Source of the DNA: Myxococcota bacterium
GTDB lineage: Bacteria > Myxococcota_A > UBA9160 > PR03
Assembly (NCBI GenBank): GCA_041611735.1
Contig: JBFIML010000034.1
Location: 1 to 48,865, forward strand
Reading direction: 5' to 3'
Length of the DNA: 48,865 nt
Numbering within the stretch: position 1 is the first letter of the stretch; every line of letters starts with the position of its first letter. This document shows, in pieces, positions 4,273 to 32,741 of the stretch. The notes under the pieces were generated by a model. That model was not told the DNA's origin. It made no database searches and worked only from the letters and a program-made list of their open reading frames with translations. The position numbers and the translations under genes were made by a program.

Positions 4273-4291
4273 GGGCCGCCTCCCCGTCCGG

Positions 4292-5807: not shown

Positions 5808-5810
5808 CGC

Positions 5811-7703: not shown

Positions 7704-7794
7704 GCGTGGACTCCCCGGTGGGCCGCCCGCAGCCGGGCGGCGATTCGCCCCTCCCCAGGGATGCAATCGGCGAATCGGGCCCGGAGCTGAATGG

Positions 7795-10990: not shown

Positions 10991-11203
10991 TCAGGACTCC
11001 TCGGTCTCCTGGGCCGGGAAGTCCGGCCGGATGAACCCGGCGGCGATCTCCCGCAGGGACGTCACCACTTCCTTGTTCTCGGACTGCGGCAGCAGCGCTC
11101 GCGCGCCCTTCCTGAGCTGCTTGGTCCGGATCGCAGCCATCAGCACCAGGTGGAAGCGATTCGGGACCTGCTCGATGCAGTCCTCGACCGTGATGCGCGC
11201 CAT
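10991..11203 (-). CDS. rpoZ: RNA polymerase omega subunit
   Basis: MARITVEDC...[16 protein letters not shown]...SLREIAAG. Confidence 0.97.
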
Positions 11204-11341
11204 GGAAGGGCCCCCGCGTGGGTGGATCGGGCGACCGGAGGGTAGGAGACCGGCCCCGATGAGGAAACCCCGGCCGGCGTGGCCGCCGGCCGGGGTCCGA
11301 AGACCTTCCTCCGGGAAGGTATCGTGCTCGGTTCCTGCTCC

Positions 11342-12916: not shown

Positions 12917-14737
12917 TCAGTAGCGGTCCAACAGCTCGAGCCGCTCCCCGGCGCGGAACTCCTCCCGCAGCGCTTCGTAGTCCTCGCGCCCGAAGCGGCG
13001 GAAGCGCCGGTCTCCACGGCGGCGCCACCACAGCGGCACATCGGGCAGCCGCCGCCGGTCGAAGTGGACCGCCTTGAGGGAGCGCACCAGGATCTTCTGG
13101 GTGCGGGTGAAGTCGAAGTCCTCCACGACCCGCACGAAATCGGGCACCCACTTGGGGTCCATGCCGCCGTGGGCGACCTGGCGCTGGCAGAAGTCGTAGA
13201 AGCCCTGGGGATCGAAAGCGACCCCGGGACGCAGCTTGAGCGCCACCATGACCAGCTCGTCCGAGACGGCGCAAGGCACCCCGTAGGCGGCCGCCAGCTC
13301 CACGTCCGGGTGCTCCTGGACCAGACGGGCCACCTGGGCCGCCGAGAAGTTCTCCCCGTCCTTGCGGATCCAGTCGTCGGTCCGCCCGTCGAAGAAGAGG
13401 TAGCGCTTGCCGTCCCGCACCAGGACGTGGCCCAGGTCGCCCGAGTGGTAGATGCCATCCCGGTACTTGGAGGCGTTGGCATCCGGGTTGTCGTAGTAGC
13501 CCTGGAAGAGGCTCGTGTCGGGAGCCATCCGGCAGATCTCGCCCACGCATTCCGCGTAGTTGAGGATCCGCCCGTCCGGGCCCAGCCGGGCCGGCGGACA
13601 CTCCTGGCCGCGCTCGTTCAGGATCTTCACCTGCGGGTCGGGGATCTCCCCCACGCTCCCGCGCGGATCGCCCTTGACTCGCACGGTGCTGATGGCGGCT
13701 TCGGTGGAGCCGTACAGCTCGAACATGTCCTCGAGACCCAACCAGCGTACGAAGCGGTCGATGTCCGGCGGCGAGGCTCCGTTGCCCATGGCATAGCGGA
13801 AGCGGTTGGCCGGGTTGCGGGCCACCTCCGCCAGGATCCGCTCTTCGTCGCCCCCGTATTGCCGTTCCAGGGCCCCGAGCACGTAGTGGACCGGCTCGCC
13901 CACGTAGTTCCACCACGTCACGCCGTAGTGCAGCAGGTCGGGAACGAAGCCGCCGGCGCTGAAGCGCTCGCGGACGGCGAGGCCGGCACAGGCCTCGAGG
14001 GCGGGCTGGAAGCCGATGAACAGGGTGTTGGAGTGGAACAGGGGCATGCAGGCATAGCCCACGTCGTCCGGCGTGAGCTCCAGGCGACGCGCGACCACCT
14101 TGCCCAGCACGTAGAGCTTCAGATGGTTGTTGTTGATGCCCTTGGGCAGACCCGTGGTGCCGGAGGTGTAGATCACCATCAGGTTCGTGTCCGGTGCCAC
14201 GTCGACCCGCGGCGGGTCGAGAGATTCACCGGGCTTGGCGATCTCGCTCGCCACGCACTCGGCGAGGTCGCGCTCGGCGAGGTCCGCCTCGCCCTGGGTG
14301 CGGAGGACGAGGAGGTTCTCCGGAGGCACGCTCCGCAGCCGGTCGGCGACCCGCTCCACCTCCGGCAGGAGCCGCTCGTCCACCACCAGCAGCCGCGCCC
14401 GGGATTGCTCGATCACCCCGGCCAGGGTGTCACCGCGCAGGCCGGTGTTGAGGCCGAAGAGGGAGAGCCCCGCATACCCGCAGGCCCCGTACAGGGCCAG
14501 CAGCTCCAGGTGGTTCTCGAGCAGCATGGCCACGTGCCCCGGGTGGCGCTCGTCCACGCGGCCGAGGCGGTGCAGCAGGAAATGGGCCAGGCGCACGGAT
14601 TCGTCGCGAAAGCGGCGGTACGTCCAGCTGCGATCCCCCTGGCGCAGGAAGACCCGCTCGCCGACCTCCGGGTGCAGCGCTCGCACCTCGATCTGGGCTC
14701 CGAGGGTCGGGGGCGCTTCGAACTCCAGGGGGGGCAC
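12917..14737 (-). CDS. AMP-binding acyl-CoA synthetase (FadD17/FadD1-like)
   Basis: IYTSGTTGLPKG, PLFHSN, YGSTE, YHSGDLG, GRTDDWIRKDGEN. Confidence 0.9.
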   Translation of the reverse strand: MPPLEFEAPPTLGAQIEVRALHPEVGERVFLRQGDRSWTYRRFRDESVRLAHFLLHRLGRVDERHPGHVAMLLENHLELLALYGACGYAGLSLFGLNTGLRGDTLAGVIEQSRARLLVVDERLLPEVERVADRLRSVPPENLLVLRTQGEADLAERDLAECVASEIAKPGESLDPPRVDVAPDTNLMVIYTSGTTGLPKGINNNHLKLYVLGKVVARRLELTPDDVGYACMPLFHSNTLFIGFQPALEACAGLAVRERFSAGGFVPDLLHYGVTWWNYVGEPVHYVLGALERQYGGDEERILAEVARNPANRFRYAMGNGASPPDIDRFVRWLGLEDMFELYGSTEAAISTVRVKGDPRGSVGEIPDPQVKILNERGQECPPARLGPDGRILNYAECVGEICRMAPDTSLFQGYYDNPDANASKYRDGIYHSGDLGHVLVRDGKRYLFFDGRTDDWIRKDGENFSAAQVARLVQEHPDVELAAAYGVPCAVSDELVMVALKLRPGVAFDPQGFYDFCQRQVAHGGMDPKWVPDFVRVVEDFDFTRTQKILVRSLKAVHFDRRRLPDVPLWWRRRGDRRFRRFGREDYEALREEFRAGERLELLDRY

Positions 14738-14813
14738 GCGCAAGCTTCTCCGTCTCGCTGCCGGCGGGCCGGGGCGTCGCCCGTAGCGACACCACCGTGG
14801 GCGGCGAGATCGT

Positions 14814-15053
14814 TCAGTGCTCGATGATCTCGAGGATGTAACGCTTCTTTTCTTTGCCGCTGGCGGCAGCCATGAGCGCGCGGATCGCAGAGGCGTGGGC
14901 CCCGCCCTTCCCGATCACCTTGCCGAGGTCTTCCTTCGCCACGCGAAGCTCGAGGACGTGAGCGTGCTCCCCGACCACCTCCTTGATCTGCACCTCGTCC
15001 GGCTTGTCGACCAGAGCCCTCACGATCGCCTCGATGAGCTGCTTCATCTGCAT
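14814..15053 (-). CDS. khpA: KH-domain RNA-binding protein KhpA
   Basis: MKQLIEAIVRALVDKPDEV...DLGKVIGKGG. Confidence 0.92.
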   Translation of the reverse strand: MQMKQLIEAIVRALVDKPDEVQIKEVVGEHAHVLELRVAKEDLGKVIGKGGAHASAIRALMAAASGKEKKRYILEIIEH

Positions 15054-15224
15054 CTGCGCCCCTCCCCAGCGCCCGTGCGGGCCGGTCGCGGGGTTGTCCT
15101 ATCCCCCCCCGGGTTTCGGCCCTGCTTTTCATGGTACCAGCTTCCGGTCCCCGAGCGTGATCCAACGCACGAGACGGGCCTCCTCAGACACGCGCGGGGG
15201 GGTGGAAAATCCCCCCGGCGCGCT

Positions 15225-15259: not shown

Positions 15260-15925
15260 GTGTCGGGGGACGCCATCGCCGTGGAGGGGCTCTCCAGGGG
15301 GTTCGGGGCCCGGGAAGTCCTCCGGGGGCTCGAGCTGCGAGTTGGCTCGGGAGAGTGGATCGGCCTCGCCGGGGAGAACGGCTCCGGCAAGTCGACCCTG
15401 CTGCGAATCCTGGCCGGGCTGCTCGAGCCGGGTCGGGGCCGGGTCCGGGTGGCCGGCCTCTCCCCGGCCGGGGCTCGGGCCGCGGCCCGGGTGGGCTGGT
15501 GCGGCGGGGGCGACGGGGGCTTCTCGCGGCGACTTCCGCTGAGAGCCGACCTGGAGCTGCACGGGCGTCTGCTCGGACTCTCGGGTCGCGGCCTGGGTCG
15601 GCGGATCGAAGAGCTGGCGGAGCGGCTCGGCTTCGCCTCCCACCTCGGTCTGGCGGCGGAGCGCTGCTCCACGGGCCTGCGCCAGCGTGCGGCCCTGGCC
15701 CGCGCCCTGCTCCACGATCCGCCCGTGCTGCTCCTGGACGAGCCCCTGCGCGGCGTGGATCCCGCTTCTGCTCTGGGGCTGGCCGATGAACTGCGCCGCG
15801 CCCGGTCTCCCGCGAGCGCGGTCTGGGTGTCGCACTCCCCGGCGGAGTTCGCGCGCGTGGCGGACCGGGTGCTGGAGCTTCGAAGCGGACGCCTGGCGGG
15901 GGCGACGCGAGCCCGGGCCGCGTGA
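15260..15925 (+). CDS. ABC exporter ATP-binding subunit
   Basis: GENGSGKST, signature CSTGLRQR, LLLDEP, H-loop SH. Confidence 0.9.
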   Translation: MSGDAIAVEGLSRGFGAREVLRGLELRVGSGEWIGLAGENGSGKSTLLRILAGLLEPGRGRVRVAGLSPAGARAAARVGWCGGGDGGFSRRLPLRADLELHGRLLGLSGRGLGRRIEELAERLGFASHLGLAAERCSTGLRQRAALARALLHDPPVLLLDEPLRGVDPASALGLADELRRARSPASAVWVSHSPAEFARVADRVLELRSGRLAGATRARAA

Positions 15926-16731
15926 GACGCTTCACCCGCCAGATCCTGGCCTTCGGCCGGCGTGACCTCGCCCTGGAACGCAACGCCGCGCCCTCCCTGG
16001 CGCTCGGCCTGGGATCGGGCGTGCTGGGACTGCTCGCCTATCACTACGTGGGCCGGCTCGTCTCCGACGCTCCGCCGGCTCCCCTGGCCGGTGGCGGCTA
16101 CTTCCCGTTCGTGTGCACGGGCCTGATGGTGCAGCTCGTGACGGTTGCGTTCCTCGGCGCCATCGGGGGGGGGCTGGCCCGCGAGGCCGCCGAGGGCACG
16201 CTCGAGGCGGCGCTCGCCTCGTCGGCCTCGCCGGCAGCGCTGGTGATCGGACGCAGCCTGATGCCCACGGCCCTGGCGGGCCTCCAGGCTGGCCTGTACG
16301 GAACGGTGGGGGCCGTCGCTCTGGGCCTCGACCTCTCGGGCGCGAACCTGCCGGTGGCCGGCCTCGCCCTGGCCACGACGCTGGTCGGATGCGCGCCCTT
16401 CGGTCTGCTCGGCGCGGCGGCGTGGCTCGAGGTGCGCCGGCCCGGCCTGGTGACAACGCTGGTGGGCCTGGGCTTCGGGCTCGTGGGCGGGGTCTACTTC
16501 CCGCTGGCGTTGCTGCCGGAGCCCGTGGCCCGGGCAGCGGCCTGGATCCCCCTGGCCGCCGGGCTGGAGGCGGTTCGCGCCTCCCTGCTGGAGGGCGCAG
16601 GGCTGGTCCAGGTGGCGGCGCCGCTCGGCCGCGCCGCGCTCTCCGCGCTGCTCGGTCTGCCCCTCGGCCTGGCGCTGCTCGGCTGGGGCCTCGCCCGCGC
16701 CCGGCGCCGGGGCACGCTGGCCCTCGCGTGA
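15922..16731 (+). CDS. ABC-2 type exporter permease
   Basis: Six-TM pattern, REAAEGTLE, GGVYFPLALLP; GTGA overlap with the ATPase. Confidence 0.88.
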   Translation: MRRFTRQILAFGRRDLALERNAAPSLALGLGSGVLGLLAYHYVGRLVSDAPPAPLAGGGYFPFVCTGLMVQLVTVAFLGAIGGGLAREAAEGTLEAALASSASPAALVIGRSLMPTALAGLQAGLYGTVGAVALGLDLSGANLPVAGLALATTLVGCAPFGLLGAAAWLEVRRPGLVTTLVGLGFGLVGGVYFPLALLPEPVARAAAWIPLAAGLEAVRASLLEGAGLVQVAAPLGRAALSALLGLPLGLALLGWGLARARRRGTLALA

Positions 16732-17189
16732 GCCCAGGCGGCTCGGACGCCGCGGCGCAGCGGCGCTGACACCAGCGCGAGCCAGCGGCGCGGGGGAAGG
16801 TCCAGGCGTCGCCAGCGGGCTTCCGGAGCGGCGCTGCGCCGGGTCACCGCCACGCCAAGCACCCGCTCGGAACCGACCCAGCCATCGGGACGCGGCCGGC
16901 GGTCGCCGCGCAGCAGCCAGCGCTGCCCGCGGGCGCGCACGACCCGATGCAGCACCAGGCGGCTCCCGGCCAGGGCCAGCACCACATCGCCCCGACGGGG
17001 TGGCCGCGCCACGAGACACACGCAATCGCCGGGCCGGAGCGCCGGCACCATGGAGTGGCCCCACACCCGGAGCACGAGCGGGCCCGCGCGCAGGGCGCTC
17101 CCCAGGGCGTCCAGCGCCGCCGGCTCCGCCAGCGCGGCGGCCGGGTCGAGGCCGCGCGCCTCAGGCGGCGCAGGCCGCGGAGCCCGCAT
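16494..17189 (-). CDS. S24/S26 family peptidase (putative RiPP leader peptidase)
   Basis: GHSMVPALRPGD (Ser), LHRVV (His), LRGD...DG; no signal peptide; 3' end overlaps the convergent permease. Confidence 0.78.
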   Translation of the reverse strand: MRAPRPAPPEARGLDPAAALAEPAALDALGSALRAGPLVLRVWGHSMVPALRPGDCVCLVARPPRRGDVVLALAGSRLVLHRVVRARGQRWLLRGDRRPRPDGWVGSERVLGVAVTRRSAAPEARWRRLDLPPRRWLALVSAPLRRGVRAAWAHARASVPRRRARARPQPSSARPRGRPSSAESAARPSGAATWTSPAPSSREARTASSPAARGIQAAARATGSGSNASGK

Positions 17190-18060: not shown

Positions 18061-18255
18061 CTAGGAGCCGATGTTCATGCAGAAGACCGTGGGCTGGCTC
18101 GACTGCTGGCAGGAGCCCGCGGCGCCGCCGAAGCCTCCCGTGCCCACGTCCATCTTGCAGTTGTCCGGGAAGCTGGCCATGACGTCCAGCTCCACCAGCC
18201 GCACCCGCGGCGCCGCGTAGGGACGGCGCGCCCGCGTCCGCTTGGCCTCGCTCAC
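18061..18255 (-). CDS. Putative RiPP precursor peptide (64 aa)
   Basis: MSEAKRTRARRPYAAPRVRLVELDVMASFPDNCKMDVGTGGFGGAAGSCQQSSQPTVFCMNIGS. GGAGG RBS; GTG overlaps the rSAM stop; YxxPxV leader; Cys33/49/59; C-terminal Ser. Confidence 0.85.
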   Translation of the reverse strand: MSEAKRTRARRPYAAPRVRLVELDVMASFPDNCKMDVGTGGFGGAAGSCQQSSQPTVFCMNIGS

Positions 18256-19466
18256 GTGAGCCCTCCGATGCTGAGCAGTCCGGAGCCCCCGGATCCGCAG
18301 CCGCCGCAGCCGCCACTCCCGCACCCGCTGGCCGCCGCGCCCGCCCCCCCGCCGCCGGGTTCCGAGACCGCGTCGGCCAGGGCTCCGGAGTAGGTGCGCT
18401 CGCGCACGGCCGAGAGCCGGCACAGGAAGTCCACGTGGGAGTCCTGCCGGCTCGTCTCCCAGAGCGCCACGCCCGGGCAGTTGTGGCAGGAGACGCGGCT
18501 CGGGCAGCTGCCGCACTTCGAGGCGTCGTCGCGCCGCAAGGCGAGGATCTTGGGAAACTCCCGCCGGTAGATCTCCTCGAGCGGCTGCTCGCGCAGGCTG
18601 TGCCGGAAGTTCTTCACCATCAGGCACACCTGCACGTTCCCGTAGGGGTCCACGTGCAGGGAGTTGCGACCGGCGCCGCAGGAGAAGAGCGCATTCGGGT
18701 CCAGGGCCGGCGCGTCGTCCTCGGTCAGATGGCGGCGCCAGGCGCGGTCCTTCTCCGGGTCGGCGGCCTCGAGCGCCACGATCTCCTCGGGCGCCAGCCG
18801 CAGCGCGTGGGGGCGGCGGTCGCCCTCCATGGTCGCGAGCAGCACCGGGTCGTAGCGGAAGTCGACGCCCAGGTCCTTGGCCAGCTGCGCGAGCCCCGGG
18901 ATCTCGTGGGCGTTCTCCCGGGTGGCAGGGCACTTGAGCGCCAGGGGGTGCCCCGCCGCCAGCACGCGCTGGATGCCGGCCAGGCAGCGATCGTAGGAAC
19001 CCTGCACCGCCACCACCTGCTCGTAGACCTGACGCGTGAGCCCGTAGAGCGAGATCTCCACCAGGTAGGGGGGATAGGCCTCCCACAGCTCGGCGATGCG
19101 GTCGTCGATCAGCGTCCCGTTGGTGAAGACGGTGACCAGCATTCCGAGCTCCTTGGCATGGCGGTAGAGCTCGGGAAAGTCCTTGCGCAGCAGGGGGTCT
19201 CCCCCCGTCAGCAGCAGGAAGAGGGTTCCAAGCCCGGCGAGCCGGTCGAGCAGGGCCCGGATCTCGTCGCCCGAGAGCTCCTGGCTGCGCTCGCCCGGCG
19301 GGCAGTAGCAGTGCGTGCAGTGCAGGTTGCAGCGATAGGTGAGCTCGATGGACGCGGAGACGGGGACCCGCTCTGCGACGATGCGCCGCTTGTAGTCCTT
19401 GCTGAGCGCGTCGCTGCGCACGTGCTCGAGATGGGGCATGCGCGCCGCGGCCCGGGCGAAGTTCAC
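18252..19466 (-). CDS. Radical SAM/SPASM domain peptide maturase
   Basis: CNLHCTHC, TGGDP, FTNG; SPASM CGAG...GNVQVC...CGSCPSRVSCHNCP...FLC. Confidence 0.93.
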   Translation of the reverse strand: MNFARAAARMPHLEHVRSDALSKDYKRRIVAERVPVSASIELTYRCNLHCTHCYCPPGERSQELSGDEIRALLDRLAGLGTLFLLLTGGDPLLRKDFPELYRHAKELGMLVTVFTNGTLIDDRIAELWEAYPPYLVEISLYGLTRQVYEQVVAVQGSYDRCLAGIQRVLAAGHPLALKCPATRENAHEIPGLAQLAKDLGVDFRYDPVLLATMEGDRRPHALRLAPEEIVALEAADPEKDRAWRRHLTEDDAPALDPNALFSCGAGRNSLHVDPYGNVQVCLMVKNFRHSLREQPLEEIYRREFPKILALRRDDASKCGSCPSRVSCHNCPGVALWETSRQDSHVDFLCRLSAVRERTYSGALADAVSEPGGGGAGAAASGCGSGGCGGCGSGGSGLLSIGGLT

Positions 19467-19753
19467 GTCCCCACCTCCTCGACGCAGCCGGCCTCGACGA
19501 GCTGGGCCAGGAACTCGTCCAGGTCCGCGCGCGCGCGCGCCGGCTCCACCTCGAAGGCCCGCGTCACGGCGCGGACCACGGCGCCCGCGGGCCGGCGCCC
19601 ATCGAGGCGCTCCCAGACGAAGGTCCCGACCTCGTTCAGGGTGAAGAGACCCATCTCCTGGGCCCGGTGGCGAACCGGCACCAGGATCGTCTCTCCCGCG
19701 ATGCGCCGGGCCACGATCCCCGGCCGGCGCGCCCAGCTCCGCTCGTCGCTCAT
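19463..19753 (-). CDS. PqqD family RiPP recognition element (RRE)
   Basis: IVARRIAGETILVP...LFTLNEVGTFVWERLDG...ARADLDEFLAQL; 96 aa. Confidence 0.93.
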   Translation of the reverse strand: MSDERSWARRPGIVARRIAGETILVPVRHRAQEMGLFTLNEVGTFVWERLDGRRPAGAVVRAVTRAFEVEPARARADLDEFLAQLVEAGCVEEVGT

Positions 19754-20907
19754 CCTGCACCTCCCGGGACCGCGCGCGGGTCCGTGCTCTCCGGCGTCGC
19801 TCGCCGGCCGCGGCGCGCCACGCCCCGGGCCACGTACCACGCGTCCCCGGGACGTGCGGCCCAGGCGGCGGTGCGCGCCACGTCCCACCAGCTCTCGCCC
19901 AGCAGCAGCTTGGCCAGCCGTGCCGGCCGTCGCGCGTGGGGGCGGGCAAAGGAGACCGCCAGGCTGCGGTGCAGCAGCCGGCGCCGCACGGGCCCCGGGG
20001 CCAGCCGCGCCAGCACCTCCTTGGGCACCGGGGTGCGCAGCAGGTCCCGGGCCGCGGCAAGGCCGGCGTAGAGCGGAGCGCGCAACCGCCGCTGCTCCGC
20101 CTCCCGCAGCAGCTCGCTCCACTCCAGGGGCTCGCCGACCAGCATGCGGTGCAGGTCCACCAGCCAGATCCAGCGCTCGAACGCATGGCGCGCCCCGTGC
20201 ACGGCGCCGAACAGGAGGCTTCCCAGCCGGCTCGGGATCCGCGCACCGGGCCGTACGTCGTCGACGCACAGCTCGCGCAGGAAGATCTCTCCGGGCAACG
20301 CGAAGCCGCGCATCAGGCTCTCCGGGCCGGCCCAGGCCCAGTGCAGCTCCAGAAACACGTTCACCCCGGCCACGCGGCGGTGGAAGGCCACCTCGTGGCC
20401 TCCGGCCAGGGCGGCCGCTCCGCCCGTGGCCGGGGCGAAGCCGAGTCTCGCCAGCGTCTGCATGGCCCGTCCGCGCTCCGCGCGGGCCACGATCAGATCC
20501 AGGTCGTCCATGGGTCGGGTGCCCGCATCGGCGTAGAGCGGCGGCGTCCCCTCCAGGAAGGCCCAGCCCTTGAGCGGCGCGGCCGGGATGCCGCGGGCGG
20601 CCAGCGCCTCGCGCACCTCGGCACCGGCGGCGGTGGCCACGGCGTTGCGCCGGGCCGTGGCCCGGTGCAGCACCCGGCACAGCTCGCGGAACGAGGCCGG
20701 CAGCGGATCCGCGAGGCGCCCCTCGGCGAACGCGGCGTGCAGGAGCGGGGCCACGCGGTGTCGGCGCGCCAGGGCCCCCACCGCCTCTTCCTCGAAGGGG
20801 AGCTCGTCGTCGAAGGGATCGCCGGCCCGGGCCGAGCCCAGCGCGGTGCGCAACAGGTGGGCGAGCCAGCGCTCGGCCGGGACGCTATGGCGGGACAGCA
20901 CGATCAA
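19750..20907 (-). CDS. Nucleotidyltransferase family protein (NTP_transf_5 type); start may be 20901, 20919 or 21015
   Basis: PLKG, RPMDDLDLIV (DxD), LELHW, WLVDL; ATGA overlap with pqqD. Confidence 0.85.
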   Translation of the reverse strand: MIVLSRHSVPAERWLAHLLRTALGSARAGDPFDDELPFEEEAVGALARRHRVAPLLHAAFAEGRLADPLPASFRELCRVLHRATARRNAVATAAGAEVREALAARGIPAAPLKGWAFLEGTPPLYADAGTRPMDDLDLIVARAERGRAMQTLARLGFAPATGGAAALAGGHEVAFHRRVAGVNVFLELHWAWAGPESLMRGFALPGEIFLRELCVDDVRPGARIPSRLGSLLFGAVHGARHAFERWIWLVDLHRMLVGEPLEWSELLREAEQRRLRAPLYAGLAAARDLLRTPVPKEVLARLAPGPVRRRLLHRSLAVSFARPHARRPARLAKLLLGESWWDVARTAAWAARPGDAWYVARGVARRGRRATPESTDPRAVPGGAG

Positions 20908-20975
20908 GGCGTCCTCCACGTCCTCCGGGGAGGAGCGGAGCCGCTCCTCGGGGCTTCTCCCCAGGCGACGCCTCC

Positions 20976-21003
20976 GTATCGGACCGGAGTCCGGCCGGCT
21001 TGA
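20976..21003 (-). promoter_or_regulatory. sigma28/FliA-like promoter of the RiPP operon
   Basis: TCAA-16 nt-TCCGATAC. Confidence 0.55.
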
Positions 21004-21109
21004 GGCGCGCTTCACCCTCCCGGCCCGGGGCCTTGGCGGCCTCGGCTGCCGCCCCGTGGGAGCGCAGCCCGGCTGCGGGCCGCCGGGCTGCCCCGGCCCG
21101 GGCGGGCTG

Positions 21110-22285
21110 CTAGGCGCTCGGGGCCGCGGAGGGGGCGAGGCGTCCGGTGAGAGGGCTCCGCGCCGGCAGGGCCAGCTCCCGGTAGGCCAGCTCGATGCGC
21201 TCGAAGACGGCCCGCTCGTCGAAGCAGGCCTCGGCCCGGGCGCGCGCGGCCACCCCGAGGCTGCGGGCCCGGGGCGGGTCGGCGAACAGGGCGTCGAGGG
21301 CCGCCCGCAGGGCGGCGGGGTGGCGCGGCGGCACCAGCAGACCGGTGCGGCGGTGCAGCACCGCCTCCCGGCAGCCGCGGATCGACGTGGCCACCAGCGG
21401 GCGCGCCAGGGCGGAGGCCTCCAGCAGCGCGCGCGGAAAGCCCTCCCGGTAGGAAGGCAGCACCACCGCATCCATGGCCGCCACGAAGGGGGCGGGATCC
21501 CGCTGCAGCCCCAGCCAACGCACGCCGGGACGGGCGGCGAGCCGCTCGGGAGCCAGGGCGTCTTGCTTGGCGATGCGCTCGTCGGGCCCCACCAGCCAGA
21601 GCGCGAGCCCCGGGCGTCCGGCCACGGCGCGCACCAGGTCCTCGACTCCCTTCTCCCGCACCAGACGGCCCACGAACCCGACCACGCGCTCGCCGGCCCG
21701 CACGCCGAGCCTGCGTCGCACCGCCGCGCGAGCGTCCGGCCCGAAGCGCAGCGGTGCGAAGCGGGCCAGGTCGACCCCGTTGCCCAGCGGGCGCAGGCGC
21801 TCGTCGGGCACGATGCGTCGCCAGCGGGCCGTGCGCACGTCCTCCGCACTCTGGCACAGCACCAGGTCCGCCAGGCGCGCGGAGAGCGCTTCGACGGCAC
21901 GCCAGCTGCGACGCACCCAGCGTCGCTGTCCCTCGTGCGAGTAGAGGCCGTGCACGGTGGAGACGACGCGCGGCACGCCGGCCAGGCGGGCGGCCAGCGC
22001 CCCCAGCGCGTTCACCTTGGGGTTGTGGGTGTGCACCACGTCGTAGCCCTGGCGGCGGAAGAGCCTCACGTAGCGCAGCAGGGTGGCCACGTCGGCCAGG
22101 GGCTCGATGCGGCGGGAGTTGGCCACGGCGTGCACGCACCAGCCCTCGGCGCGAAGCTCCTCGACCAGGTCGCCGGGGCCGCACACGATCTCCACGTGGT
22201 GCCCGGCGGCGCGCAGGGCACCCAGCTGCCCGCGCAGCAGGAAGGCACAGAAGTAGTCCGTGTTGGCGACGTGGGCGATGCGCAT
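21110..22285 (-). CDS. GT4 glycosyltransferase
   Basis: VHTHNPK, GNGVD, FVGRLVREKG, PSYREGFPRALLEA. Confidence 0.93.
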   Translation of the reverse strand: MRIAHVANTDYFCAFLLRGQLGALRAAGHHVEIVCGPGDLVEELRAEGWCVHAVANSRRIEPLADVATLLRYVRLFRRQGYDVVHTHNPKVNALGALAARLAGVPRVVSTVHGLYSHEGQRRWVRRSWRAVEALSARLADLVLCQSAEDVRTARWRRIVPDERLRPLGNGVDLARFAPLRFGPDARAAVRRRLGVRAGERVVGFVGRLVREKGVEDLVRAVAGRPGLALWLVGPDERIAKQDALAPERLAARPGVRWLGLQRDPAPFVAAMDAVVLPSYREGFPRALLEASALARPLVATSIRGCREAVLHRRTGLLVPPRHPAALRAALDALFADPPRARSLGVAARARAEACFDERAVFERIELAYRELALPARSPLTGRLAPSAAPSA

Positions 22286-22292
22286 GGTGCCC

Positions 22293-24179
22293 TCACGCGA
22301 CGCGGTGCCGGGTGCCCCAGTCGGTCAGCACCACCAGGCTCCAGATCCGCCAGGCGTGGTCGGCCCGGCGGCGGGCGTGCTCCTGCACGAGGCGGCTCAC
22401 CGCAGCGGAGTCGAGCCATCCCGTGCGCCGCAGCCGTTCGGGGGCCAGCGTGTCCGCCACGAACTCCCCCAGCGCCCCCCGGATCCAGCCGCCGACCGGG
22501 GCGTCGAAGCCGGCCTTCGCGCGGCGCCGCACGGCGGCGGGCAGTCGCGGCCCGAAGACGTCGAGCAGCGCCAGCTTGCCGCGCCCGCCGCGCTGCTTGC
22601 GGAGCGAGGGGAGCCGCACCGCATGCTCCACCACGCGGTGGTCCAGGAAGGGCACGCGCACCTCGAGGCCGTGAGCCATGCTGCCCCGGTCCACCTTGAC
22701 CAGCATGTCGTCCGGAAGCCCGAGGCAGAGGTCGACGCGCAGCCGGGCATCCAGGCCGTCGCGGCCGCCGAGCCGCGCACGCAGCTCGCAGAAGTGGGCG
22801 AAGCCCGCCTCGCCGTCGCCGTCCAGGCCCGGCACCAGGGCCTGCTTCTCAACGGCCCGGAACAGGCACCCCAGCGCGAAGGCACGCCCCGGTTCGGAGA
22901 GGCCTTCCGCCTCCAGCAGCTTGCGCGCGCGTCGGCCCAGCTCCCCGAGGCGGCTGGCCCGGTCCTCCCCGAGCCGACGCAGGAGCGGTCCCACCACCCG
23001 CTGGCGCAGCGGGGCCGGGAGACGCTGCCAGCGGGCGAGCCAGTGCTCGGCCCGGTAGCGGCGATAGCCGGCGAAGAGCTCGTCGGCTCCGTCTCCCGCC
23101 AGCACGACGGTGACCCGCTCCCGGGCGGCGCGCGCAAGGAGGCTCACGGGCAGCAGGGAAGAGTCCGCCAGCGGCTCGTCGAGGCGGGCCACCAGGGCGG
23201 GCGCACTCCGGCGCACCTCGTCGCCACGAATCGCTACCTCGTGGTGGCGCGTGCCCAGGAAGCGCGCCGCCCGGCGGGCGTAGTCTCCCTCGTCGAGGCG
23301 CGGGCACTCCGGGAAGCGGGCGGAGAAGGTGTCCAGGGAGCCGCGCTCCCGCACCGCGAGGGCGGTGACCAGGGTCGAGTCGAGGCCGCCCGAGAGGAAG
23401 CTTCCCACCGGGACGTCGCTGCGCAGCTGCAGGCGCACCGCATCCACCAGCTTCGCGTACAGGCCCTCGCGCCAGCCCCGGGGCCCTGCCTGCTCCGGAG
23501 CAGGCAGCGACCACCAGCGCTCGATGCGTGCCCGGCCGCGCTCCCACACGAGCAGGGTTCCGGGCTGGAGCTTCGCGATGCCCCGGACCAGCGTCCGCGG
23601 CGACGGCGCGAAGCCGAAGTCGAGATAGGCGGAGAGCGCAGCCCGGTCGAGATGGCGCTCGGCCCGAGGATCCACGAGCAGCACCGCGAGCTCCGAGGCG
23701 AAGGCCATCCCGCGCGGCCCGTTGCGATGGAAGAGGGGCTTCACGCCGAGCCGATCGCGCACCAGGGTGAGGCGTCCGGGCTCGGGCTCCCAGAAGGCGG
23801 CGGCGAAGATCCCGTTGGCCTGCCGGAAGGCCTCGGGTCCCTGCGCCTCGAAGAGCTCGAGCAGCACCTCCGTGTCGGTGCGCGTGCGCCAGGGGAAGCC
23901 CGCCAGACGGCGGCGCAGCTCCGGGTGGTTGAAGATCTCCCCGTTCAGGACGATCCACGTGCGTCCCGAGCGACTCGCCATGGGCTGGGCGCCCGCGGGC
24001 GTGGGATCGAAGACCGCCAGGCGGCGGTGGACGAGGCCCGCCCGCCAGTCGCCCGCCGCAGCGGGCGGCCGCACGATGCCCTCTCCGTCCGGCCCCCGGT
24101 GCGCCAGCGCCGCCGCCATGCCGCGCAGCGACGCCTCCTCGACGGCTCCTCGCGCCACGATGCCGGCGATGCCGCACAC
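22293..24179 (-). CDS. asnB: Asparagine synthase (glutamine-hydrolysing)-like amidotransferase
   Basis: N-terminal MCGIAG, HRGPD, NGEIFN, RDRLGVKPL, LSGGLDS, GDGADELF, EVRVPFLD. Confidence 0.93.
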   Translation of the reverse strand: MCGIAGIVARGAVEEASLRGMAAALAHRGPDGEGIVRPPAAAGDWRAGLVHRRLAVFDPTPAGAQPMASRSGRTWIVLNGEIFNHPELRRRLAGFPWRTRTDTEVLLELFEAQGPEAFRQANGIFAAAFWEPEPGRLTLVRDRLGVKPLFHRNGPRGMAFASELAVLLVDPRAERHLDRAALSAYLDFGFAPSPRTLVRGIAKLQPGTLLVWERGRARIERWWSLPAPEQAGPRGWREGLYAKLVDAVRLQLRSDVPVGSFLSGGLDSTLVTALAVRERGSLDTFSARFPECPRLDEGDYARRAARFLGTRHHEVAIRGDEVRRSAPALVARLDEPLADSSLLPVSLLARAARERVTVVLAGDGADELFAGYRRYRAEHWLARWQRLPAPLRQRVVGPLLRRLGEDRASRLGELGRRARKLLEAEGLSEPGRAFALGCLFRAVEKQALVPGLDGDGEAGFAHFCELRARLGGRDGLDARLRVDLCLGLPDDMLVKVDRGSMAHGLEVRVPFLDHRVVEHAVRLPSLRKQRGGRGKLALLDVFGPRLPAAVRRRAKAGFDAPVGGWIRGALGEFVADTLAPERLRRTGWLDSAAVSRLVQEHARRRADHAWRIWSLVVLTDWGTRHRVA

Positions 24180-24182
24180 GGC

Positions 24183-25082
24183 TCAGCCGACGCCCCACGC
24201 CCGCCGCCGCTCGGCCCGGCAGGCGGCCACCCCACGCCACTGGTCGCGAAGCGCCCGGCGCAGATGCGGGCGCCCGAGCGCCTGGAGCAGCTTCGCGCCC
24301 TGGAACACGACGAGGCCCGGAAGCTGCGCCACGAACTCCCGGCGCCGAGCGTTGCGCAGGGAGAGCCACAGCCGGTTGCGCACCAGGTGATACTCGACGA
24401 ACGCCGGCGAGGCGCCCGACCCGCCGCGCTGGTGCTCGGCCTCCGCGTCCGGCACGTAGCGGGTGCGCCAGCCCGCGCGCCGCAGCCGCCAGGCCAGGTC
24501 CACGTCCTCGTAGTACATGAAGAAGCGCTCGGCGAAGGGCGCCTCGCCGGGCACGGAGATGCGGCGCAGGGCGGCGGAGCGGTAGAGTGCCGCCGCCCCG
24601 CAGGCCCCGAACACGTCCTCCTCCCGGGGGTGGCGCTCCGGGGCGGCCCCGCGGCCACGGTCCAGATAGCGGCCGCGGGCGAGCGAGCACGCGATCCCCG
24701 CCGAATCGAGACGCCGGGGCCGACCGGGCGCCAGCAGGCGGCCTCCCGCGGCAGCCAGGCCCGGGTCCCGCTCCAGGGCGCTGGCGAGCCGGCTGAGGAA
24801 CCCGGGCCGCAGCACCACGTCGGGATTCAGGACCAGGAACCAGCGGCCCCGGGCGCGGGCGAAGTTGCGGTTGTGGGCGGCCGCGTAGCCCACGTTGCGA
24901 GCCAGCGCCCTCAGCTCCACGTCCGGATACCGGCGCCGCAGGTGAGCCACAGTGCCATCGTCGGAGGCGTTGTCCACCACCAGGATCTCGCCCACGACGG
25001 GCCCCTGCGCGCGCAGCGCCTGCAGACAGTCGTCCAGCCCGGCGCGGCTGCGGTAGGTCACGAGGCTGACGGAGACGGACAC
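24183..25082 (-). CDS. GT2 glycosyltransferase (rhamnosyltransferase-like)
   Basis: VVDNASDDG, NVGYAAAHN, LNPD, FFMYYEDVDL. Confidence 0.92.
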   Translation of the reverse strand: MSVSVSLVTYRSRAGLDDCLQALRAQGPVVGEILVVDNASDDGTVAHLRRRYPDVELRALARNVGYAAAHNRNFARARGRWFLVLNPDVVLRPGFLSRLASALERDPGLAAAGGRLLAPGRPRRLDSAGIACSLARGRYLDRGRGAAPERHPREEDVFGACGAAALYRSAALRRISVPGEAPFAERFFMYYEDVDLAWRLRRAGWRTRYVPDAEAEHQRGGSGASPAFVEYHLVRNRLWLSLRNARRREFVAQLPGLVVFQGAKLLQALGRPHLRRALRDQWRGVAACRAERRRAWGVG

Positions 25083-26362
25083 GCCGATCCTCCCGGGGCC
25101 ATCAGCTCCTCGAAGCCCGCCACCATCCGGCCCAGGGTGGCGTCGCAGGCGAGGGCGTCGCGGGCCGCCGCTGACGCGGCCGGGATCCGCTCACCGCGCC
25201 GCACGCGAGCGTGCAGCAGCGCCAGGGCGGCCAGCGTCGCCTCCCGATCGCGGGGGTCCGCCACCAGGCCGAGTCCGAAGCGCTGCACCAGACGCGTGAG
25301 CGAGCCGGGCGGCGCCAGCGCCAGCACCGGGCGCTCCGCCCCCGCCGCATCGAAGAGCTTGCCGGGCACGGGCTGACCGCCGAGGGGGCCGTCGGCGCCG
25401 AGCACGAGCGCCACGTGGGCGGCGCGCAGCACGCGGCCGAGCTCGGCCCGGGGCGCCGGCGGCTCCACGCGCACCCAGCCCGCCAGGCCGGCCCGGCGAA
25501 CGGCGGCGGCGACGGCGGGCTCCGCGCCCACCAGGCGCACACGCACCTGGGCGGGAACCCGCGCATCGCGCCGGGACCACACGCGCAGGGCATCGATCAG
25601 ACGCTCCAGCATCCCGCTGCGGTTCAGGAGCAAGGTGCCCGCGTGCACGATCTCGAAGCGCTGCGCCGGGGGCTCCACGTGCCTCCAGGCCGCGAACTCT
25701 TCCGGCGCGAAGCCGGTCAGCGCCAGCTCGCTGCGGGCGGCCAGGCCCGGCATGCGTGCGCGGTAGTGCTCGGCGACCGCCTCGGAGGCGAAGAAGACCC
25801 GATCGGCCCGGCGCAGCACGCCGGCCTCGAGGCGCCGCTCGAAGGCCTGGCGACGCGCCGGGAGCGCCACGCGCGAGTGATCGCAGGTCCAGCCGTCGCG
25901 GAAGTCCGCCACCCAGGGCACGCCGCAGGCTTGCGCCGCCAGCCCGGGGAGGTGGGCCGAGTACGGCGGACAGCTGGTGTAGACGAGGTCCACGCAGCGG
26001 GTAGCCGCCAGCGCCGCCGCGACGGGGGCGGCGAGCAGGCTCCAGCCCACGTGCAGGTCCGGGACCAGCCAGCGCGCCAGCCGCCCGGGCGTGCCGGGCG
26101 CACAGCCTCCCCTTCCACGCCGCGCGCGTCGGGCGAGCCGACCCCAGTCGGGGTTCAGGAGGCGGATCAAGCGAGTGCCGGCCGCAACCTGCGCCAGGCC
26201 CGCCGGGTCCTGGACCCAGGCGGCGTGATCGACGCTGAGCACCACGGGCTGCCAGCCCGCCGCGGCCAGGGCGCGCACCACCTTCACGGTGCGGCTCACG
26301 CCGCCGCCGCCCACGGGCGGGAAGTAGTAGGCCACCACCAGGGCGCGTCGGGAGCCTCTCAT
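25058..26362 (-). CDS. GT4-like glycosyltransferase
   Basis: VVAYYFPPVGGGGVSR, TSCPPYS, WVADFRDGW, PGKLFD. Confidence 0.88.
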   Translation of the reverse strand: MRGSRRALVVAYYFPPVGGGGVSRTVKVVRALAAAGWQPVVLSVDHAAWVQDPAGLAQVAAGTRLIRLLNPDWGRLARRARRGRGGCAPGTPGRLARWLVPDLHVGWSLLAAPVAAALAATRCVDLVYTSCPPYSAHLPGLAAQACGVPWVADFRDGWTCDHSRVALPARRQAFERRLEAGVLRRADRVFFASEAVAEHYRARMPGLAARSELALTGFAPEEFAAWRHVEPPAQRFEIVHAGTLLLNRSGMLERLIDALRVWSRRDARVPAQVRVRLVGAEPAVAAAVRRAGLAGWVRVEPPAPRAELGRVLRAAHVALVLGADGPLGGQPVPGKLFDAAGAERPVLALAPPGSLTRLVQRFGLGLVADPRDREATLAALALLHARVRRGERIPAASAAARDALACDATLGRMVAGFEELMAPGGSACPSPSAS

Positions 26363-27525
26363 GTTTCCGCCATCCAGCGCGCCAGGCGTGCCGCGGCCGC
26401 GTCGAGACGGAAGCGGCGCTCGACCTCCCTGCGTGCGCGAGTGCCCAGTGCGCGCCGCCGGGCGGGGTCGTCGAGCAGCGCCGCGAGGGCTCCCGCCAGG
26501 GCATCGGGGCGACCCGGGGGAACGAGCCATCCGGTGCGGCCGTGCGCGACGGCCTCGCCGATGCCGCCCACGGCCGTGGTCACCACGGGACGCGCCGCCG
26601 CCATGGCCTCCAGCAGGGCGACGGGCAGCCCGTCGTGGCAGCGTCCGCCGTCCACCGTCACGCACGGCAGCACGAAGAGCGCCGCGCGGCCCAGGGCGTG
26701 CGCCACCTGTTGGCGGCCCACCTCGCCCTCGAACTGCACGTGGTCCCGGAGACCGAGGGCCCGCACGCGTCGCCTCAGGAGCGGCTCGAGCGGCCCGCCG
26801 CCGAGCAGGCGCACCCGGAAGCGCTGCCGCCGGGCCGCCAGCTGCGCGGCCGCCTCGAGCAGGACCGGGATGCCCTTCTTGGCCACCAGCCGGGCCACGC
26901 AGACGATCTCCGGCGGATCCGCTTCGGGCTCCGCTGCCGGGGCGAAGCAATCCACGTCGACGCCCAGATGGGAGACCCGGATGCGCTGCGCCGCTTCCTC
27001 GCCGGCGGCGGCCCGCAGGCGGGCGCTGGTCTCGCGCGAGATGGCGCGCACGAAGGCCGCCTCGGCCACCAGGCGCGGCAGCCAGGGACGCGGGAGCTGC
27101 ACGTCGTAGGCGTGGCCCGTGAAGCTGAACGGCAGGCCCGCAAGCCGTGCCGCGGCCCAGGCGGTCCAGGCCGGGAAGGTGGCGAAGCTCCCGTGCAGGT
27201 GCTGCCAGCCCTCGACGCGGGCACGCTGCGCCAGGTGGGCCGCCAGCAGCACCAGGCGACCCGGCGCGCCCTCGCGTGCCGCCCGCCGCAGGATCGGGAG
27301 CAGCCGCGCGGGATGGACGCGTAGATCCCGCCACGCGCTGCGTAGCCAGGCGGCGCGTCCGCGTCCCGGGTAGAGCACCGGGCCGCCGTAGGCCGCTTCC
27401 CAGCGCGGAGCGGGGTCCGGGCGGAAGACCGCCGCCACCCGCACGTCGAGGCCGGCCTGGCGCAGGGCGCCCACCTCCTCCGCCACGAACGAGCAGGCGT
27501 TCTCCACCAGGACCGCGACCTTCAT
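26359..27525 (-). CDS. GT4 glycosyltransferase (WcaL-like)
   Basis: FTGHAYD, VARLVAKKG, DGLPVALLEAMA. Confidence 0.9.
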   Translation of the reverse strand: MKVAVLVENACSFVAEEVGALRQAGLDVRVAAVFRPDPAPRWEAAYGGPVLYPGRGRAAWLRSAWRDLRVHPARLLPILRRAAREGAPGRLVLLAAHLAQRARVEGWQHLHGSFATFPAWTAWAAARLAGLPFSFTGHAYDVQLPRPWLPRLVAEAAFVRAISRETSARLRAAAGEEAAQRIRVSHLGVDVDCFAPAAEPEADPPEIVCVARLVAKKGIPVLLEAAAQLAARRQRFRVRLLGGGPLEPLLRRRVRALGLRDHVQFEGEVGRQQVAHALGRAALFVLPCVTVDGGRCHDGLPVALLEAMAAARPVVTTAVGGIGEAVAHGRTGWLVPPGRPDALAGALAALLDDPARRRALGTRARREVERRFRLDAAAARLARWMAET

Positions 27526-28835
27526 GCGGGCTGGGCCTCCATGCCGGCTGGGGCGTCCTCGCTGTGCGCCCCACGCCGGCCGCGACGCACGACGATCCCC
27601 ACCGCGCCGAACAGGAGGAAGAGCACCATCACCTGGGCACGATGCCGGTAGGCGGTGCCCAGGTTCGACTCGACCAGCGCATACGAGACGGTCACGAACA
27701 AGAGGAAGGCCAGGATGGGCAGTGACGCGGCCAGTCGCGTACGCAACGCATGCACGATCCCGATGGCGACGAAGGGGATCAATGCGTACCAGGCCAGCAT
27801 CTCCGGGAGCGTCAGCACCTGGCGTGCGTTCCAGACCTGCCAGGGCGCCGGGGCGAGCAGGAAGTAGGCCAGCCCGAGCGGAAGGAAGCGCAGCGCCTTG
27901 GACGGCGAGGACACGTCCGCGTCGCCGTAGTAGGCGGAGCCGCCCAGGGCGAGATCCTGACGCGCCCGGTCCAGGCTCTCGAAGCTCACCTCCTCGGCGA
28001 GCTCGCCCACGCTTCCCACCACCGGAGCTCCCAGGGCACCCACGGCGAGCAGGAGCGCCATCCCCAGCGGCGCCTGCGCGCCCCGCAAGCGCGGCAGCAA
28101 CCAGGCCATGGCGAGGGCGCAGCCGGCCACGAGCAGCAGGTAGGAGCGCAGCTGGCCGATGCCCAGGGCCCCCGCCGCCAGGGCGGAGACGGCTCCCAGG
28201 GAGAGTCCGCCCTGGAGCTTCTGCGCACCACGCAGGAGCAGCAGGATCGAGAGCAGAACGCAGGCATCCTTCAGGTTGAGGCTCGACCACAGCACGAGCG
28301 ACGGCCAGAAGGCGGCGAGTGCAGCCGCCACGCGGGCCGCGCCTGGCCCGGCGACCTCGCGCGCCAGTCCGTGAACGAGCAGCACCGACAGGCCGCCGAC
28401 GGCCGCGTTCACCAGGGCGGGCACGAGCCCGTGGGGTCCGAACAGCCGGAACAGGAGACCGTTCCAGACGTAGTAGCCCACGGGCGGGTGCAGGGCGGGA
28501 AGCGGGCCCTCCCCTTCCCAGTGCCGGGCCAGGGCCGCGCCGAGCAGTTCGTAGCGGCGGTCGTCCAGGGCGAAGAAGCCGTCCGGCACCGCATAGGCCA
28601 CGACGAGGGCCAGGGCCGCGCGCACCGCCACGGCGCCCAGGAAGAGTCCCAGCAGCACGCGCCGCTCGCGGGAGTCCGAGCGGATCGCCAGCCCGAGCGC
28701 CACGGGCAGCGCCACCAGGGCCAACGCCGCCAGGCCTGCGGGCACGGCGGCGGGAACCCGGGCCACCGCCAGGGCCAGGCCCGCGCCGAGGCCCACGCCG
28801 ACGATCCACTCGCGTCCCGGCGCCCTCGCCTTCAC
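27522..28835 (-). CDS. Polytopic membrane protein, Wzy polymerase/GT-C-like
   Basis: About 10-12 TM segments, DDRRY, SLNLKD, NLGTAYRHR; overlaps both neighbours by 4 nt. Confidence 0.7.
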   Translation of the reverse strand: MKARAPGREWIVGVGLGAGLALAVARVPAAVPAGLAALALVALPVALGLAIRSDSRERRVLLGLFLGAVAVRAALALVVAYAVPDGFFALDDRRYELLGAALARHWEGEGPLPALHPPVGYYVWNGLLFRLFGPHGLVPALVNAAVGGLSVLLVHGLAREVAGPGAARVAAALAAFWPSLVLWSSLNLKDACVLLSILLLLRGAQKLQGGLSLGAVSALAAGALGIGQLRSYLLLVAGCALAMAWLLPRLRGAQAPLGMALLLAVGALGAPVVGSVGELAEEVSFESLDRARQDLALGGSAYYGDADVSSPSKALRFLPLGLAYFLLAPAPWQVWNARQVLTLPEMLAWYALIPFVAIGIVHALRTRLAASLPILAFLLFVTVSYALVESNLGTAYRHRAQVMVLFLLFGAVGIVVRRGRRGAHSEDAPAGMEAQPA

Positions 28836-32724: not shown

Positions 32725-32741
32725 GGTCGTTCCACCCCTCC

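Follow-up and report, generated by a model that had tools for sequence, protein, structure and literature searches.

Introduction

The gene clusters of the linear polyphosphorylated peptides (LPPs) and of the phosphorylated lasso peptides of the paeninodin and pseudomycoidin type are the closest known counterparts of the system described here, which centres on a 64-codon peptide gene on the minus strand of a 48,865-nucleotide stretch of DNA (contig JBFIML010000034.1 of assembly GCA_041611735.1, positions 1 to 48,865; hereafter the window) from a Myxococcota bacterium. The peptide gene follows directly on a gene for a radical S-adenosylmethionine enzyme with a SPASM region (rSAM). We consider it likely that this translated gene encodes the precursor of an uncharacterised pathway for a ribosomally synthesised peptide that is modified after translation (RiPP), so far seen only in an uncultured Myxococcota lineage. 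By analogy, the cluster is best read as an LPP/paeninodin-like tailoring module combined with a PqqD-dependent rSAM/SPASM step directly before the peptide gene.

The account of the known systems draws on sections of the cited articles. LPPs were defined by Popov et al. (Nat Commun 2026, PMC13381572), and their clusters are embedded in capsule loci of Bacillota. The precursors carry the sequence YxxPxVLxHQxIxFETxxS followed by highly variable C-termini. Residues Y-16 and P-13 are required for binding to the RiPP recognition element (RRE), and crystal structures together with mutants showed that LppB cannot bind without YxxP; [Y/W]xxP leaders are bound by LppB and by the B1 proteins of lasso clusters. 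LppS, a Ser/His/Asp peptidase, cleaves the leader after T-1 only when the RRE is present, and LppK phosphorylates S3, which becomes polyphosphorylated. The LPP core gene set needs no rSAM enzyme. The authors call LPPs restricted to Bacillota and leave their function open (PMC13381572). The main text of that article contains 0 occurrences each of 'Radical SAM' and 'Myxococc', and in its supplementary SpI table some small network clusters contain a few homologues from Myxococcota.

In lasso leaders, YxxPxL occupies positions -17 to -12 (PMC10368454). In pseudomycoidin biosynthesis, the C-terminal Ser acquires one to three phosphates through PsmK, a kinase of the HprK family, and PsmN, an uncharacterised nucleoside triphosphate (NTP) transferase, adds a hexose to the phosphate (PMC6993621). 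The D158A/D159A double mutant of PsmK, altered in the predicted metal site, is inactive (PMC6993621).

Results

The peptide gene is conserved and coupled to the rSAM gene

The product of the peptide gene begins with VSEAKRTRARRPYAAPRVRLVEL and ends in CMNIGS. Its three Cys residues, Cys33, Cys49 and Cys59, are spaced as C-x15-C-x9-C, and it further contains Y13, P16 and the terminal pair G63-S64. On the minus strand the GTG start (18255-18253) overlaps the TGA stop of the rSAM gene (18254-18252) as GTGA, and a Shine-Dalgarno-like sequence lies upstream of it (Table 1). The open reading frame (ORF) also forms the end of a 341-amino acid (aa) shadow ORF (18061..19086) that runs through the rSAM gene in another frame. 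The GC content of the window is about 75% and long open frames are frequent in many frames; therefore, the peptide ORF by itself proves nothing. Its GC content by codon position (0.62/0.55/0.97) is like that of the neighbouring genes.

A search of a collection of 5.8 billion proteins gave 43 homologue clusters, with E values from 1.5e-28 to 3.4e-12. These proteins are mostly 56-69 residues long, and the source label is 'hypothetical protein' or they are unnamed. A pattern scan with one genome per species found eight related loci (designated by L numbers) that carry the peptide gene at the same position, and the hosts of all eight are metagenome-assembled genomes (MAGs) labelled Myxococcota or 'delta proteobacterium'. 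Each locus has one copy, and no second copy or paralogue was found in the window or in the loci. The start codon is ATG in six of the seven loci that include it and GTG, as in the window, in the remaining one. A stretch containing GGAGG or GGGGG, GGAGG-like in most cases, precedes the start in the seven loci that include this region, and in L003, L006 and L007 a stop codon closes the peptide frame 14 to 16 codons upstream of the start.

For the last 54 codons, the mean non-synonymous (dN) and synonymous (dS) divergences were 0.077 and 0.854, with a ratio of 0.09, and the variable columns at codon positions 1, 2 and 3 numbered 13, 9 and 40 of 54. Because of this low ratio, the third-position variation and the conserved start and Shine-Dalgarno sequence, the peptide ORF is, on the comparison of sequences, a translated gene under strong purifying selection. 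The 4-nucleotide overlap between the rSAM stop and the peptide start recurs at every one of the 8 junctions available (the window and the seven loci that include the junction), and the peptide gene is translationally coupled to the rSAM gene. An earlier note on this DNA had described a 64-codon ORF with its own GGAGG and a GTG overlapping the rSAM stop, and had taken it as a true small gene that is coupled to rSAM; the reading of the window agrees with the former claim, and the homologues, the dN/dS ratio and the overlap bear out the latter.

The rSAM protein of the window (P0051) is present in the protein collection at 100% identity, but no identical peptide is among the matches listed there, of which the best shows 95% identity over 86% of the query. 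The peptide gene is therefore probably uncalled on this contig.

Conserved residues and predicted organization of the peptide

Column counts were taken from an alignment of 44 peptide rows, in which residues 1-9 are variable and the C-terminal 40 residues are near-invariant. Position 13 is Y in 40 rows and W in one, with three gaps, while P16 is kept, and position 18 is I, V or L, in 40 of the 41 non-gap rows each. The residues V25, M26, F29, P30, N32, C33, K34, G41, F42, G43 and G44 occur in all 44 rows. C49 and C59 are present in 42/44, and the two rows without them look frame-shifted or truncated. The other counts are 42/44 for S52, 41/44 for S53, 43/44 for the terminal Gly-Ser, 36/44 for D36 and 30/44 for N61.

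The logo anticipated in the earlier note (YxxP, CK, three Cys and terminal GS) is found in this alignment. The same applies to the leader motif it had proposed for RRE binding, as YxxPx[I/V/L] is conserved and the adjacent PqqD protein is a discrete RRE related to lasso B1 and LppB. Its list of possible acceptors, D31, N32, D36 and N61, stands less well: N32 is invariant, and D36 and N61 are poor candidates by conservation.

The predicted leader comprises approximately residues 1-27 or 1-28 and bears Y13-x-x-P16-x-V18, followed by the residues R-L-V-E-L-D-V-M-A-S. The predicted core extends from about residue 28 or 29 to residue 64 and bears C33, C49, C59 and G63-S64. If Y stood at -16 as in the LPPs, the leader would end with S28, and under the classical signal peptidase -3/-1 rule V25-M-A27 would put the cut before S28. 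The peptide alone is predicted to be unstructured, with a predicted local distance difference test score (pLDDT) of 58.7, a predicted template modelling score of 0.18 and no secondary structure; the confidence is highest for residues 11-20.

The most distant full-length member, P0048, keeps Y..P, E-L-D, N-C-K, the three Cys, Q-S-S-Q-P and C-M-N-x-G-S, and is without the G-G-F-G-G stretch. A profile search of 1.84 billion representatives gave only 5 matches. Against Pfam the peptide has no match, and against NCBIfam one meaningless 15-bit match. The ESM Atlas returned the cluster of the peptide itself, one more Myxococcota cluster (0.90) and a cluster of 63-aa peptides from Acidobacteriota (0.89), which serve only as leads.

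The rSAM/SPASM enzyme adjoining the peptide gene

The rSAM protein contains the cluster motif CNLHCTHC (C-x3-C-x2-C) and seven later Cys residues in the SPASM region. It reaches no curated cut-off in NCBIfam. Among the full-length matches, MftC, StsB and GeoRSP rank best, and the scores, in bits against the cut-off, were 115.1/265 for MftC, 97.6/381 for PqqE, 82.8/625 for StsB, 73.1/400 for GeoRSP, 69.1/400 for ScmE, 61.7/300 for SkfB, 61.2/400 for ScmF and 58.6/850 for AlbA. In the PDB the best match is PqqE (6c8v, 3.3e-18), followed by SkfB, and a sugar-nucleoside decarboxylase (7vob) is also matched.

Orthologues of the enzyme form about 44 clusters at 66% identity or higher, followed by a gap to a large family of about 40% identity. 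The number of these clusters roughly matches the 43 clusters of the peptide. The family of about 40% identity includes Chloroflexota and Acidobacteriota members (e.g., a Vicinamibacteria MAG), and together with the 63-aa Acidobacteriota peptide cluster (0.89) it hints at sister systems with different peptides.

The rSAM protein ends in a Gly/Ser-rich tail with three Cys of the C-G-S-G-G-C-x-x-G-C type (18255-18360, minus strand). L-L-Q/S-I-G-G stands just before the stop, and the tail in the window ends with LLSIGGLT. This Cys/Gly-rich tail is found in all eight sequences (the window, L001-L003 and L005-L008), and its I-G-G codons double as the Shine-Dalgarno sequence of the peptide gene. Possible roles of the tail are those of an additional metal site, a mimic of the substrate or a plug of the active site.

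The operon and its conservation

The operon on the minus strand has the order NTP_transf_5, PqqD, rSAM/SPASM, peptide, HprK-like kinase and S24 protease, with the genes of an ATP-binding cassette (ABC) exporter of the ABC-2 type converging on it. This order recurs in all eight loci as far as each contig extends. In the window, the junctions from the NTP_transf_5 gene to PqqD and from PqqD to the rSAM gene are also 4-nucleotide overlaps of start and stop: the PqqD ATG overlaps the stop of the preceding gene (ATGA), and the PqqD stop overlaps the rSAM GTG (GTGA). The GTG of the kinase gene begins 3 nucleotides after the TAG of the peptide gene. Across the loci, the identity is 74-93% for the peptide, 71-82% for rSAM, 57-70% for the kinase, 55-60% for the NTP_transf_5 protein, 47-71% for PqqD and 41-58% for the protease.

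Putative recognition, tailoring and processing proteins

The PqqD profile matched TbiB1 (5v1u, 6.4e-6), PqqD, LppB (9x8z_B, 1.1e-4), TfuB1 and PbaB1 (9x90, 6.1e-4) in the PDB. Its NCBIfam matches are weak, to the lasso PqqD, ScmD (33.5/100) and geo_PqqD (25/100) models. For the NTP_transf_5 protein, a sequence search of the PDB gave no match.

The NCBIfam matches of the kinase-like protein are below the cut-offs (HprK_rel_B, 35 bits; ScmC, 32 bits, cut-off 125; HprK_rel_A, 22 bits), and its sequence search of the PDB gave P-loop matches only. The Walker A sequence G-x-S-G-A-G-K-x-T and the motif L-S-D-D-R are invariant in nine orthologues. An AlphaFold2 model (pLDDT 75.5) matched phosphoenolpyruvate carboxykinase (PEPCK) and HprK/P (2qmh_B), with E values of about 5e-5 and template modelling (TM) scores of 0.3-0.5. 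HprK/P and PEPCK share a fold.

The protease shows invariant G-x-S-M, L-H-R and G-D motifs in the alignment of orthologues. In the alignment its His coincides with the SEC11A His, at a position occupied by Lys in LexA, and the protein is therefore assigned to the Ser/His type of archaea and the endoplasmic reticulum (ER). The sole NCBIfam match is TIGR02228 (sigpep_I_arch), which hits 4 of 9 orthologues and scores 24.2 bits (cut-off 51.85). The protease ORF runs without a stop to 16494, about 237 bases into the convergent ABC-2 permease gene, which ends at 16731. L001 shows no such overlap, and in L008 the apparent homology at the C-terminus of the protease contains stops and probably reflects the permease gene read in antisense.

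Surrounding genes

Upstream of the operon lie Wzc-like, Wza-like, TPR and PMT_2 genes, and on this account the region is assigned to exopolysaccharide synthesis. It is a large locus of about 21110-36230 on the minus strand with three GT4 or GT2 glycosyltransferase genes, and the peptide operon is its last transcription unit. An asparagine synthase gene, asnB, lies between the GT2 and GT4 genes in the window and in L001, L003 and L005, and is absent in L007 and L008; because of this absence, AsnB is not an obligatory partner of the peptide system. The best NCBIfam match of AsnB is the XrtA/PEP-CTERM amidotransferase model, below its cut-off.

A lasso peptide cluster was considered and rejected, as there is neither a cyclase nor a B2 protease. 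AsnB scored 168.7 with the lasso cyclase model NF033535 against a cut-off of 525, and it is also missing in the 2 of 6 loci reaching that far (window included) noted above. The operon ORFs searched against Pfam and NCBIfam included no B2 cysteine leader protease, in a scan of the window that was not exhaustive.

Farther away, an archease and RtcB RNA ligase pair (39337-41495, minus strand; RtcB PF01139, 539 bits) is unrelated to the peptide. Coding-like ORFs with high GC at third codon positions and no Pfam match (E of 1e-5 or lower) are found at 5808-7925, where two long ORFs on opposite strands overlap, and on the minus strand at 3556-4347, 43602-45026 and 34839-36230.

Table 1. Position of the peptide gene, its operon and other annotated features in the window
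Feature	Position	Strand	Details
Precursor-like peptide gene	18061..18255	-	64 sense codons and TAG; GTG start
Shine-Dalgarno-like GGAGGG	18261..18266	-	5 bases 5' of the peptide GTG, inside the last rSAM codons
Radical SAM/SPASM enzyme, 404 aa	18252..19466	-	PF04055, 80.8 bits; PF13186, 23.7 bits; both above gathering scores
Discrete PqqD-family RRE, 96 aa	19463..19753	-	PF05402, 64.4 bits
NTP_transf_5, 'uncharacterised nucleotidyltransferase'	19750..21015	-	PF14907, 127.5 bits; start GTG at 21015 or 20919
HprK-related P-loop kinase-like protein, 298 aa	17161..18057	-	Weak HprK_rel_B, ScmC and HprK_rel_A matches
S24/S26 serine peptidase, archaeal/ER signal-peptidase type	16494..17189	-	PF00717, 23.5 bits; start and C-terminus uncertain
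ABC transporter ATP-binding protein	15260..15925	+	PF00005, 80.2 bits; syntenic in 8/8 loci; convergent with the operon
ABC-2 type permease	15922..16731	+	PF01061, 40.5 bits; syntenic in 8/8 loci
GT4 glycosyltransferase	21110-22285	-	Pfam/NCBIfam scan
Glutamine-hydrolysing asparagine synthase AsnB	22293-24179	-	Passes TIGR01536 (401.9 vs 267)
GT2 glycosyltransferase	24183-25082	-	Best NCBIfam match MftF (76.6 vs cut-off 280)
PMT_2	27525-28859	-	
TPR	28835-29374	-	
Wzc-like tyrosine kinase/GNVR	30853-32742	-	
Wza-like	32745-33656	-	
KhpA-like KH-domain protein	14817-15098	-	Housekeeping border gene
AMP-binding acyl-CoA synthetase-like	12920-14914	-	Housekeeping border gene
RNA polymerase omega (rpoZ)	10994-11263	-	Housekeeping border gene

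Discussion

The kinase, the NTP_transf_5 enzyme and the archaeal-type protease around the peptide gene, none of which the earlier note had remarked on, tie the locus to machinery of the LPP/paeninodin type, and this likeness gives a likely role to the conserved Ser residues, including the terminal one. From the observed conservation of the gene, its coupling and the fixed operon, we infer the following course. The discrete PqqD protein would bind the leader through Y13-x-x-P16-x-[I/V/L]18, in the way of lasso B1 proteins and LppB, and present the peptide to the rSAM/SPASM enzyme, which would modify the near-invariant core; cross-links that involve its three conserved Cys residues are the most plausible outcome. 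The HprK-like kinase may then phosphorylate one of the conserved Ser residues, the candidates being S64, at the C-terminus like the site in paeninodin and pseudomycoidin, and S28 by the cleavage site, as with S3 of the LPPs. The phosphate may in turn be decorated by the PF14907 enzyme, in the manner of PsmN. The protease, which resembles archaeal-type signal peptidases, would remove the leader near V25-M26-A27/S28, and the ABC-2 transporter would export the product.

Several observations weigh against an LPP/paeninodin-like module with an rSAM/SPASM step. The kinase, protease, PqqD and rSAM proteins are all below every curated NCBIfam cut-off, and the kinase model matches its fold relatives moderately (TM 0.45-0.50 on the query). 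'PF14907', the family to which LppN and PsmN may or may not belong, has 0 occurrences in the PMC13381572 supplements that were searched. The core of the peptide is near-invariant and bears Cys residues, whereas the C-termini of the LPPs are highly variable; such a core is unusual for many antimicrobial RiPPs as well. The exporter consists of an ABC ATPase and an ABC-2 permease and is not MsbA-like as in the LPP clusters. ABC-2 systems also export polysaccharides, and this one may serve the exopolysaccharide locus instead of the peptide. The housekeeping neighbours (rpoZ, the KH-domain gene and the acyl-CoA synthetase gene) are syntenic across the eight loci too; since the whole neighbourhood is shared, the loci represent related genomes and not independent contexts, which makes adjacency weaker evidence. 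Finally, the peptide homologues other than P0048 and P0049 are at least 59% identical, and as nearly all of them are so close, the logo is drawn from one narrow clade.

It is improbable that the peptide is a purely LPP-type precursor, with the rSAM/SPASM enzyme acting elsewhere, for example on a sugar or lipid of the polysaccharide pathway. Such a division would suit an LPP core gene set that needs no rSAM, the position of the locus among glycosyltransferase, Wza-like and Wzc-like genes, and the sugar-nucleoside decarboxylase 7vob among the PDB matches of the enzyme. However, the peptide maturases MftC and PqqE are the best matches of the enzyme over its full length, all 8 junctions show the rSAM stop overlapping the start of the peptide gene, and PqqD with rSAM/SPASM is a classic peptide-modifying pair; in addition, a linear peptide that is only phosphorylated would leave the three near-invariant Cys residues and the near-invariant core without a role. 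The matches to MftC (115 vs 265), the best in NCBIfam, and to PqqE, the best in the PDB, can also be taken to mean that the peptide is the precursor of a redox cofactor or small molecule, in the manner of pyrroloquinoline quinone (PQQ) or mycofactocin, and not of an exported modified peptide. The GT2 protein with MftF as its best match (76.6 vs 280) and the extreme conservation of the core point in the same direction. We regard a cofactor as quite improbable: all those matches fall short of the cut-offs, the scanned ORFs included no PqqB/C or MftD/E-like gene, and the C-terminus is Gly-Ser and not the aromatic residue used by the PQQ and mycofactocin pathways, while the kinase, NTP transferase, SpI-like protease and exporter fit the LPP/paeninodin logic.

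Two further explanations dispense with modification of the peptide. With three conserved Cys residues, strong conservation of the whole C-terminal 50 residues and a Cys/Gly-rich tail on the rSAM enzyme itself, the product might be an unmodified small Cys protein, either metal-binding or an accessory subunit of the rSAM enzyme or the polysaccharide machinery; yet it is predicted to be unstructured, its conserved YxxPx[IVL] adjoins a discrete RRE, and a leader-peptidase-like gene and an exporter are present at the operon, so that we give this idea very little weight. A chance, untranslated open frame, the tail of a shadow ORF in GC-rich DNA, is hardly tenable. It would be in keeping with a window of about 75% GC with many long shadow ORFs, a frame open for 341 codons into the rSAM gene and a peptide apparently uncalled on the contig. 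The dN/dS ratio of 0.09 with its third-position variation, the start codon and Shine-Dalgarno sequence conserved in the loci that include them, and the upstream stops that close the frame in L003, L006 and L007 effectively refute it, and gene callers elsewhere predict a protein of 56-69 aa.

The preferred reading, a precursor in an LPP/paeninodin-like module with an rSAM/SPASM step, provides a concrete substrate candidate for an uncharacterised rSAM/SPASM subfamily, which is short, near-invariant and equipped with three Cys and a handful of conserved Ser residues. It extends to Myxococcota a tailoring logic that was published in 2026 as Bacillota-restricted, and suggests that radical chemistry can be joined to such a logic. 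The presence of peptide modules in polysaccharide loci of two distant phyla sharpens the question raised by the LPP authors about a role in capsule or biofilm biology. A lesson for annotation is that small genes with a GTG start overlapping an upstream stop can be missed in DNA of 75% GC.

A bolder proposal, which we think unlikely, is that the locus is the founding example of a hybrid RiPP class that joins PqqD-guided rSAM/SPASM cross-linking to Ser phosphorylation and phospho-glycosylation, with the peptide as a working part of exopolysaccharide assembly and not an antibiotic. The peptide may then be, for example, a phospho-Ser primer or anchor for the neighbouring glycosyltransferases, or a signal controlling the locus. 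If true, this would explain why such modules stand inside polysaccharide loci in both Bacillota and Myxococcota, as well as the almost frozen core and the inactivity of LppN without partner genes.

Comparison with known systems

Judged by profile scores, the window system belongs to none of the curated families tested. The GeoRSP and SynChlorMet (Scm) cassettes resemble it in having rSAM/SPASM, PqqD and HprK-related proteins side by side, and the kinase and PqqD give weak matches to these models; the scores for GeoRSP (TIGR04303/TIGR04302) and ScmC/D/E/F are all far below the cut-offs. The two cassettes are catalogued and uncharacterised. Literature searches on GeoRSP, SynChlorMet or the HprK-related kinase gave nothing relevant, and in the library searched no paper combines HprK or HPr kinase and radical SAM either with RiPP or with both PqqD and nucleotidyltransferase. 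Judged by titles and abstracts, none of the papers listed for Myxococcota SPASM RiPP precursor peptides describes this system.

PqqE/PqqD and MftC/MftB include the closest sequence relatives of the rSAM enzyme and share a discrete PqqD partner and a short precursor gene adjoining the enzyme. However, the scores are below the cut-offs, the precursor is unrelated, and the other genes of these pathways are absent among the ORFs scanned. With sactipeptides and ranthipeptides the system has in common a Cys-bearing core, an rSAM/SPASM enzyme with a seven-Cys SPASM region and an RRE, whereas the matches to StsB, SkfB and AlbA are all below cut-off. The x15 and x9 spacing of the Cys residues and its neighbours do not resemble the hairpin pattern of sactipeptides or the Cys-x3-Asp pattern of ranthipeptides. 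The earlier note had proposed from the misfit to the latter (here C33-x2-D36) that the ring topology may be new.

The likeness to paeninodin and pseudomycoidin includes a leader motif of the YxxPxL type, a discrete RRE, a putative HprK-family kinase and an NTP-transferase-like enzyme. The precursor ends in Ser, and their kinases phosphorylate a C-terminal Ser. Unlike these clusters, the window has no lasso cyclase and has an rSAM enzyme instead. With the LPP clusters, as far as the cited sections describe them, the system shares its place in a polysaccharide biosynthesis locus, a precursor with N-terminal YxxPx[V/I/L], the lack of a macrolactam cyclase dedicated to the peptide, and a discrete RRE, its PqqD protein, which is related to LppB and the lasso B1 proteins; candidate counterparts of the LPP kinase, leader peptidase and NTP transferase are the HprK-like kinase and the SpI-like protease, both recognised below threshold, and the PF14907 protein. 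In contrast to the LPP clusters, an rSAM/SPASM gene stands between the RRE and the peptide, the remainder of the leader consensus (...VLxHQxIxFETxxS) is not matched by the peptide, and the host belongs to Myxococcota, whereas LPPs have been called Bacillota-restricted.

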